Notes: generated from the sequence alone by a model not told the origin. A stretch of DNA of 64,000 nucleotides from Trichodelitschia bisporula (GCA_010356995.1 ML996691.1:192174-256173), one strand, 5' to 3'; positions 52,278 to 53,576 are shown, numbered from the stretch's first letter. Numbers and translations are program-made.

Positions 52278-53576
52278 TCAAACAATAATATACACCACCA
52301 GCCCACCCACCGCCGCCAGCACCCCCATCCGCAGACAAGAACGCATTTCCCCCGCTGCCGACACCGGCACCTTCGTAGTACTCGCCACCTGCGGCGCAGC
52401 CGTAATAACACTAGACGCGAAAGCCGACGAGTCCCGCTCCCAAACCAGCAGCGAGGAAGAGGGCGACGCGGACGGGAATGTCATCTATACCGGTCAGTAT
52501 TAGTACGCGAAAGCGCGGGGATGAGTCTTCTTACGCACACTGGCCGAGCTGGGCGGCACCACCTTTCCGGACGAGGATACGGTCCATCCGCTCGGGAGCC
52601 CGGGGTAATTGGCGTATGTCGCCGTGGACAGCGTGGTTGCCTGCGGCACCCAGGGGTACACCGAGGGGGTGGTGTAGCTGGTGGTGTCGCGGTGCGTGCC
52701 CTGGAACACGATTGGCTGGCCTGAGGACACGCTCGTCACGGCCGGCGCGTTGTCGACTACTTTGCTCCCGCCGGAGTTGACGCTCCCGCCCGCTGCGCTG
52801 ATGTCCTGCCACGTTCCGCTCGTGCCCTTGTAGCTGTACTGCGTGCCCGTGGAGTAGTCCTGCACGCTCACGCTCTTAACGTACATGGAATACGGGCCCG
52901 CGGCGTAATTCGTCGCGCCGCCGGCCCAGGTAATCGTGCCTGCGGAGTTGGAGGCGTCGCCACCGCTCCACGCGCCGATCTTGACTTGCATCGGCGTTTG
53001 AGGGTACTGGCCTGCCTCGGCGGTGGAGGGCGTGAGCGAGCGCACCGTCACGCCGTCGATCTGCCACAGAATCTGGTTCGCGGTCCAGTCGATCGTGTAC
53101 CGCTTGTAGCCAGATTGAGACCCGGAATCAGCGTGGAAGGCACCGCGGTTGTACGTCGTAGTCTGGCCCTTGCCGAAGTAATTGCTCTGCACCTTGTCCG
53201 CGTCGGCGCCGAGCCATTCCCAGTCTATTTCGTCGAGGGAGTCGGATTGGAGCACCACGCTGCTGACGATGCCGACGCCGGGCGCGGCTTTGAGGAGGAC
53301 TTCGACACGCCCGAACATGATGTACCACTTTGAGGTGATTTGCGGCGAGTCGCCGGATTTGGCGACGGTGAAGGCTACACCGTCGCCGTTGTAGGTTGGG
53401 TTGCCGGAGGGGGTGAAGCTGTCTGACGCGCCCTTTGTGAAGTCGATGGAGACGGAGCGGCCGAGGGCGGAGTCGGCGGGGCAGCCGGTTGTGTAAAGGG
53501 GGTTGCAGTTGCTGTACGTTTGCGCGGCAGAGAGGGAGGTGAGGGCGGCGAGGGTCGTGAGGGAGAATAACCGCAT
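52278..53576 (-). CDS. GH16 Crh-family cell-wall chitin transglycosylase, probably GPI-anchored; two possible 3' isoforms (stop at 52411 or 52278)
   Basis: Signal peptide, QTYSNCNPL, WYIMFGRVEV, catalytic DEIDWEWLG, YTIDWT, YPQTPM, Ser/Thr-rich linker. The last intron ends at an acceptor at 52485. Confidence 0.93.

Follow-up and report, generated by a model that had tools for sequence, protein, structure and literature searches.

The gene described here lies on the minus strand at positions 52278 to 53576 of a 64,000-nucleotide (nt) stretch of the Trichodelitschia bisporula genome (GCA_010356995.1 ML996691.1:192174-256173; the whole stretch is called the window, and positions are counted from its first letter). 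It encodes a putative cell-wall transglycosylase of the Crh type, and two splice donors 4 nt apart at the end of its first exon probably allow the last exon to be read in two frames, each with an anchor-like end. The open reading frame (ORF) begins with the ATG at 53576-53574 and runs uninterrupted through ...PPSSAS, giving an exon 1 product of 346 amino acids (aa) (P0003). A Pfam scan of this product matched PF00722 (Glyco_hydro_16) over residues 61-219, with an E value of 1.3e-44 and a score of 152 bits (cut-off 22). The best 120 of its 2847 homologues are 64-75% identical to it, with 93-100% query coverage. The names given to these 120 by their sources include Crh-like protein, chitinase, transglycosylase, and Crf1/Asp f 9, and the closest named one among them is from Tothia fuscella, a dothideomycete (75% identity). 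P0003 also contains DEIDWEW, in which E116, D118, and E120 do not vary among the 19 aligned sequences and form an E-x-D-x-E arrangement that we take to be the catalytic motif of Crh-type glycoside hydrolase family 16 (GH16). The N terminus, read by eye, is a candidate signal peptide; it is hydrophobic and ends ...SLSAAQT. Together, these features place the predicted product among the GH16 transglycosylases of the Crh/Crf1 type, which would link chitin to glucan.

Exon 1 of this gene has two possible ends. The exon-intron border reads GCC AGT/GTGC/GTAAGA (slashes mark the alternative cuts), with two GT dinucleotides spaced 4 nt in the layout known as GYNNGY (GTGC/GTAAGA, 52538-52529), and the exon ends at 52539 with the first donor or at 52535 with the second. 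Through donor 1, the 346 aa are followed by 68 more (P0001) for a product of 414 aa, with the stop TGA at 52278-52280. Through donor 2, they are followed by V, a split codon, and 23 aa (P0002) for a product of 371 aa, with the stop TAG at 52411-52413, 133 nt upstream of the long-frame stop. The third frame of exon 2 in the window meets a stop after one codon. This anatomy (donors at 52538 and 52534, the acceptor, both stops, and products of 371 and 414 aa) had been proposed in a first-pass annotation made from the sequence, and we found every coordinate and length to be correct to the base (Table 1). When the intron is retained in the window, a stop is reached after 12 codons (...VRKKTHPRAFAY). 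The sole protein on record for the locus in the collection searched (P0004; window 52539-53552) has 338 aa, starts 9 residues past the ATG, and ends ...SSASV; it is therefore without any last exon and without any anchor signal.

Table 1. Features of the Crh-type gene in the window
Feature	Coordinates	Strand	Details and evidence
Exon 1, Crh-type GH16 gene, end set by donor 1	52539..53576	-	346 codons; P0003 translation, Pfam, homologues
Donor 1, GTGCGT, phase 0, leads to long frame	52533..52538	-	Sequence; junction 52539^52484 in X1 and X2 contigs
Donor 2, GTAAGA, phase 1, leads to short frame	52529..52534	-	Sequence; usage evidenced in relatives only
GTGC tetranucleotide	52535..52538	-	Intron under donor 1, exon under donor 2; fixes last-exon frame
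Intron	52485..52538 (54 nt, donor 1) or 52485..52534 (50 nt, donor 2)	-	Single acceptor
Branch-like motifs	CTAAT 52499-52503; CTGAC 52493-52497	-	Sequence
Acceptor TAG	52485-52487 (G at 52485)	-	Sequence; exon 2 begins at 52484
Dual-coded part of exon 2, 74 nt	52411..52484	-	Short frame plus start of long-frame Ser/Thr-rich stalk
Long-frame-only part of exon 2	52278..52410	-	P0001; covered by X1/X2 spliced contigs without differences

Small residues, a spacer, and a hydrophobic end make up the classical layout of a glycosylphosphatidylinositol (GPI) attachment signal, and we read these features by eye in both tails of the window. In the short tail, S-A-S supplies the small residues; a spacer of 7 residues and a hydrophobic run of 16 come next, followed by RV and the stop. 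Its frame reads (H)DIPVR before the hydrophobic run, which is the DIPxR motif of the family, and its anchor-like signal sits immediately after the PPSSAS linker of the enzyme. The long tail adds about 42 residues, 15 of them Ser or Thr (counted by hand on P0001), and then SAAG, an 8-residue spacer, and 15 hydrophobic residues encoded by nt 52281-52325. Hydrophobic C termini had been claimed for both products, and this was borne out: the highest Kyte-Doolittle mean of any 12-residue stretch in the final 22 residues (called H below) was 2.20 for the short tail and 2.59 for the long tail. A Pfam scan of the long tail of the window matched no family. From this layout, we infer that both tails are candidate GPI-attachment signals. 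Across the overlap, the long frame of the window reads LLVWERD..., where the short frame requires Gly/Leu codons. This peptide is unlike a stalk, and it looks as if the short frame still dictates those bases in the window.

The transcript evidence from T. bisporula consists of assembled contigs from two runs, X1 and X2, which belong to one sample of one study and whose kind is on record only as a guess ("RNA?"). In each run, one contig skips 52485-52538 (54 nt), bounded by CT..AC on the plus strand and thus by GT..AG on the minus strand. Across 52100/52146-53700, the X1 and X2 contigs have 0 other letters that differ from the window, and their depths are 985 and 240.5. A GT..AG-bounded skip of 54 nt in otherwise identical sequence comes from spliced RNA; therefore, donor 1, which yields the long form, is used. 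A comparison of the two junctions had been proposed as a check, and half of it came out positive: 52539^52484 is in the contigs, and 52535^52484 (donor 2) was not seen in these contigs of one sample. Contigs retain the major path and lose minor variants, so this absence is uninformative about a minor form. The long form is presumably the major transcript in T. bisporula. We predict that the short form is a minor or conditional isoform, and we infer that donor 2 is used in this organism. At 6025 nt, the spliced contig of X1 extends about 4.5 kb past the 5' end of the gene (contig positions 1-4524), and that of X2 reaches about 1.3 kb past it; these extensions are either neighboring transcripts merged by the assembler or read-through.

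We collected relatives of the gene through a scan of metagenome contigs, which gave 80 loci, 49 of them with a PGLPSGW-type motif ahead of the junction. A phase-0 GTNNGT and a resolved acceptor are present in 39 of these 49, which we grouped by eye, by their tails, into 25 distinct loci. The other 10 are spliced contigs (L008, L017, and L062), intron-less loci (L004, L009, and L053), loci with a single short-phase donor (L035, L038, and L044), and one unresolved locus (L012). All 25 distinct loci have GTNAGT as their first donor; thus, GTNA takes the place of the window's GTGC in each of them. The second donor is GT[AG]AG in 23 of the 25 and GTACG in the remaining 2. A GT at positions +5/+6 is normal for fungal donors; the donor-like RAG that follows it in nearly every locus is out of the ordinary. 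Among the 31 loci without the PGLPSGW-type motif, tblastn yielded further tandem pairs in L026, L027, L052, and L055/L056 and one intron-less, short-only locus, L030.

Both frames of the last exon are kept in these relatives. In 26 of 26 loci (25 relatives and the window), the short frame is intact: it opens with a [DNT][IVL]P[ST]R-like motif, continues into a hydrophobic run with H values of 1.40-3.23, and stops after 23-27 aa. The long frame has 88-147 aa in the 22 relatives in which it reaches a stop, and it runs off the contig ends in L011, L013, and L028. Long tails are hydrophobic at the end (H of at least 2.13) in 20 of the 22 complete relatives, or 21 of 23 with the window included. 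As a control, the third frame reached an H of 2.0 in 0 of 25 loci. Thus, the donor pair and both open frames are kept in the 25 distinct loci, a point that the first-pass annotation had proposed to check in orthologues, and the broken second frame that it had named as counterevidence is clearly not what the relatives hold.

Among named organisms, short-tail proteins occur in Venturiales, Patellariales, Pleosporales, Mycosphaerellales-type rock fungi, and Lasallia (Lecanoromycetes), and long-tail proteins occur in many Dothideomycetes, several Lecanoromycetes, Xylona (Xylonomycetes), and Chaenotheca. By these comparisons, the donor pair with its two frames is conserved across classes of Pezizomycotina and appears to be old and maintained. 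Seven loci are short-only, either with no intron (L004, L009, L030, and L053) or with a single donor (L035, L038, and L044), and no frame with the YDxxGF block described below lies downstream in them. The short form looks indispensable because lineages without the intron or the donor pair encode the short tail alone.

Several loci and models among the relatives differ in structure. In L012, L037, L039, L057, and L076, the position four bases ahead of the phase-1 donor lacks a GT. Both exon 2 frames are intact in these five; their short tails are hydrophobic, and their long tails have 119-175 aa with a hydrophobic end. The annotated models P0344 and P0345 have GK as the last residues of exon 1, a sign of a possible phase-0 donor farther upstream, at the GK/V codon. 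In several relatives (P0127, P0143, P0146, P0150, P0157, P0170, and P0367), the intron is open and its length is a multiple of three; therefore, read-through ORFs continue in the long frame. Within a set made up of the P0098 cluster (Parastagonospora nodorum), P0183, and P0041, ORFs of 56-67 aa (...WWTQYPAYKVAFSWKTEKPASKKEKR) are annotated beside the gene, and longer models (579 aa, and 524 aa in Paraphoma) fuse the adjoining small-ORF stretch to the long form.

Both donors are used in relatives. The contig L008 carries the exact 80-nt donor-1 junction of the genomic locus L005, and L062 carries that of the genomic L014/L015; the unspliced form is found in neither L008 nor L062. L017 reads ...CCTGTCA/CAATCCCC..., which is the donor-2 junction of the relatives L011 and L016, and its long frame still reads GYDERGFTT past the short-frame stop. 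The comparison was made with these relatives, and L017 may alternatively be an intron-less gene. Both isoforms have GenBank entries that share a locus tag in Alternaria arborescens (AA0111_g5589 and AA0113_g2455; 442 and 372 aa) and A. tenuissima (AA0114_g3228) and that stand under neighboring accessions in Exserohilum turcicum (443 and 372 aa); both forms are also present for Pyrenophora teres and P. tritici-repentis. The members of these pairs are identical over 348 residues and diverge at the junction. Logan ORFs, which derive from assemblies of public runs, include sequences that match Cenococcum geophilum at 336 of 336 residues ahead of the junction; among these, the long tail (P0198) is in 57 contigs and the short tail (P0204) is in 1 contig. 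Among JGI ORFs identical to Alternaria (257/257), the long tail (P0133) is in 2 contigs and the short tail (P0128) is in 4. Annotated lengths are 372 versus 442 aa in Alternaria and 376 versus 495 aa in Cenococcum and Glonium.

We then considered codon usage in the overlap. Where the two frames overlap, the third position of each short-frame codon coincides with position 2 of a long-frame codon. This short-frame wobble base is C in 406 of 595 codons of the overlap, compared with 2846 of 7061 in exon 1, and the fraction is higher in 26 of 26 loci. Synonymous resampling of the same short peptides gave an expected 274 C, with a maximum of 305 in 2000 trials, compared with the 406 observed. Each such wobble C makes an xCx codon in the long frame and therefore Ser, Thr, Pro, or Ala, and these four make up 50-91% of the long-frame residues across the overlap. 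Mean pairwise differences at codon positions 1/2/3 were 0.39/0.30/0.64 in exon 1, 0.52/0.31/0.45 in the short frame of the overlap, and 0.56/0.50/0.69 in the long frame of the long-only part. This comparison shows the usual wobble freedom damped in the overlap, and coding periodicity in the long-only part. In the reverse direction, resampling of the window with the long peptide kept gave a short ORF of 18-35 aa with equal or higher hydrophobicity in 1.1% of 3000 trials, and per locus, 0-5.6% of trials matched the observed short tail. The short ORF of the window exceeds chance expectation. These codon statistics indicate probable constraint in both frames.

The long tails of relatives contain a further conserved element. 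After the short stop, the long frame encodes a block of the form [VI]xT.[YFW][DN]xxGF..., often followed by KS[YF]DxxGF[LP][IV]T. By eye, this YDxxGF block is present in 24 of 26 rows and absent from the window and L050. A module that spans about 41 residues and contains two YDxxGF-type motifs lies at L001:2252-2380, with equivalents in 13 other loci (alignment A3), and is absent from 52278-52410 of the window. Pfam scans of the long tails of 8 relatives (E up to 1) matched no family; the best subthreshold match was RHS_repeat, with 17.9 bits against a cut-off of 22. AlphaFold2 modeled the L001 long tail with a mean predicted local distance difference test score (pLDDT) of 59.4 and a predicted template modeling score of 0.23; only a hairpin (residues 27-45) and a terminal helix were predicted, and the module block was modeled as a beta-hairpin with a block pLDDT of 82. 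As a whole, this model is too weak to support a search by fold. A profile search with the module returned 113 representatives among 1.84 billion proteins. When 15 of the profile matches were scanned against Pfam, 3 contained GH16 and 10 matched no family; the module was not found in another domain context among these 15. The 2 of 15 with several matched stretches looked spurious (one bacterial cadherin-like, one with mixed weak matches).

The best overall explanation is that this is a Crh gene with tandem donors whose last exon is coded in two conserved frames with anchor-like tails; we give this a probability of about 0.72. The first-pass annotation had inferred that one last exon is read in two frames via a 4-nt donor shift. 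For the gene family, the 25 loci, both junctions in relatives, and the codon statistics support this inference, and for T. bisporula, where the organism's own data show donor 1 only, it is half-shown by the long junction. As a whole, we consider the dual-frame reading probable.

Several observations weigh against this explanation. The window is atypical, with GTGCGT and not GTNAGT as its first donor and a long tail of 68 aa without the YDxxGF module. Reduced synonymous variation in the overlap, which had been put forward as a check, is found in the pooled loci as damped wobble and an excess of C, and in the window alone the excess is not significant (wobble C in 14 of 23 codons, compared with 12.5 expected; P = 0.33). 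The pooled statistics are descriptive and not independent trials, because the 26 loci are related. The GenBank isoforms are models, not measurements, and taking the Logan and JGI ORFs as spliced mRNA assumes that ORFs were called without intron modeling. L016 and L045 have complete long tails without a hydrophobic end, and the long frame is dispensable in some lineages, because seven loci are short-only. Finally, the short tail may serve as a short membrane anchor or have no function.

One alternative is that donor 1 alone is functional here; GTAAGA would then be a cryptic site, unused or at the level of noise, and the short frame would be a relic from ancestors in which that site was used. 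This would fit the presence of only the donor-1 junction in the contigs, the nonsignificant wobble-C excess in the window, the divergence of the locus from its relatives in donor 1 and the long tail, and the account of mammalian GYNNGY splicing as mostly noise (PMC4267661). However, a relic would not be expected to keep DIPxR, a 16-residue hydrophobic run, and a stop at the usual family length, and just 1.1% of the long-frame synonymous resamplings preserve such a tail. The long-frame peptide LLVWERD... also does not resemble a stalk, which would make sense if these bases were set by the short frame, and GTAAG is still a good donor core. We therefore regard the sole use of donor 1 as unlikely.

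It is also possible, at a somewhat lower probability still, that the tails are different kinds of anchor, the long one a GPI signal and the short one a C-terminal membrane anchor or retention peptide, so that the switch would alter anchor chemistry as well as stalk length. The short run has only 14-17 residues, and SSA/SAS and a spacer of 7-8 residues come before it, in the classical layout of a GPI signal, although short tails often end in basic or aromatic residues past the hydrophobic run (WRF, RQWA, and FRFWL; FRV in the window). Their conserved spacer motif is unusual for GPI signals, but the overlapping frame or splicing signals could account for it. That donor 2 is regulatory and not protein coding, with an early stop and a long 3' untranslated region lowering output through mRNA decay, is very improbable: regulated GYNNGYs mostly tune expression by nonsense-mediated decay (PMC4267661) and the donor-2 stop does lie 133 nt upstream of the long-frame stop, but that stop is in the last exon with no junction downstream, a role in decay alone would not conserve a hydrophobic peptide of 23-27 aa with [DNT][IVL]P[ST]R in 26 of 26 loci, and lineages without the intron or the first donor retain exactly the short form as their sole C terminus.

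If the last exon is indeed used in two frames, the choice by U1/U6 between two overlapping donors would set its frame. Donor 1 would lead to the long frame and place the enzyme on a Ser/Thr-rich stalk, probably O-glycosylated, followed by an anchor-like tail. In most lineages this stalk would include a small beta-hairpin module, and in the window it would be short and without the module. Donor 2 would lead to the short frame over the first 74 nt and leave the enzyme on a minimal tether with an anchor-like signal of its own. Whether a GPI protein of yeast remains at the membrane or moves on to the wall is influenced by the length of its stalk and by the residues ahead of the omega site. By altering stalk length, the switch may hold the cross-linking enzyme at two depths, membrane proximal and wall embedded. 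A stronger version, which we hold only tentatively and consider doubtful as a whole, is that this is a regulated switch predating the split of Dothideomycetes and Lecanoromycetes. It would set a Crh enzyme directly on its anchor or on a glycosylated stalk (with an undescribed YD-hairpin-like module in most lineages) and so partition it between the membrane face and the wall body, and the 74 bases would have coevolved, with wobble C of the anchor frame writing the Ser/Thr/Pro/Ala stalk.

Splicing is known to select protein ends in other settings. In fungi, cryptic peroxisomal targeting arises by alternative splicing, and in animals, splicing of NCAM and acetylcholinesterase selects the C-terminal anchor, GPI or other, through alternative exons, unlike the two frames of one exon here. 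Conserved, protein-diversifying alternative splicing in fungi has been reported for SKI7/HBS1 (PMC3597508). That case resembles the present one as rare, ancient fungal splicing that gives two proteins or targeting fates per gene, but its genes and signals are different; here, a C-terminal surface anchor and stalk would be exchanged via a frame shift inside one exon.

As kinds, GYNNGY donors and dual-coding exons are already known, as are both isoforms as GenBank models in some relatives. GYNNGY tandem donors are described as the commonest alternative 5' splice sites in mammals and as mostly noise or decay coupled (Wang et al. 2014, PMC4267661). As there, the GTs are 4 nt apart, either can be cleaved, and the choice shifts the downstream frame; the two sites also resemble each other, as in the regulated cases of that report (here GTNAGT and GTRAG). 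Unlike here, the cases in that account are mammalian and are not presented as giving two proteins, whereas the present gene has two peptides that are conserved across classes of fungi, with each stop located in the last exon. In human genes, dual-coding regions that result from alternative splicing have been cataloged (PMC13160074; bioRxiv 10.64898/2026.05.28.727796), where likewise one exon is read in two frames by isoform with evidence of constraint in both. The present case differs in being a fungal cell-wall enzyme, in that both frames have anchor-like ends, and in that Ser/Thr/Pro/Ala codons of one frame arise from the wobble C of the other.

Within the enzyme family, Crf1, Crf2, Asp f 9, and Asp f 16 of Aspergillus fumigatus have been reported as "splice variants" (Schuette et al. 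2009, PMC2721682). Like the present gene, Crf1 belongs to the Crh/Crf GH16 family, is stated there to be GPI anchored, and has C-terminal variants attributed to splicing. According to that report, Crf2 arises by in-frame loss of Crf1 residues 328-389, with no splice sites identified by the authors for this loss, whereas Asp f 16 is set apart by frameshifts and its existence is called doubtful; in that account of the variants, neither is described as a 4-nt donor shift with two conserved frames. Crf2 can be ruled out as the same phenomenon, as an in-frame deletion without splice sites versus a frame-changing 4-nt shift at GT donors. In the literature searched, mostly outside subscription journals, we found no description of a tandem-donor or two-frame last exon in Crh/GH16 genes, and the main text of a study of splicing in Cladosporium fulvum makes no mention of GH16, Crh, or GPI (PMC11694984).

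The case spans classes of Pezizomycotina and lies in an enzyme family that cross-links chitin to glucan. Annotations choose either form seemingly at random, which distorts orthologue tables and inventories of GPI proteins. If both isoforms are made, one gene would provide two differently tethered versions of a wall-building enzyme, and the division of GPI proteins between membrane and wall would become testable by locking one splice site.

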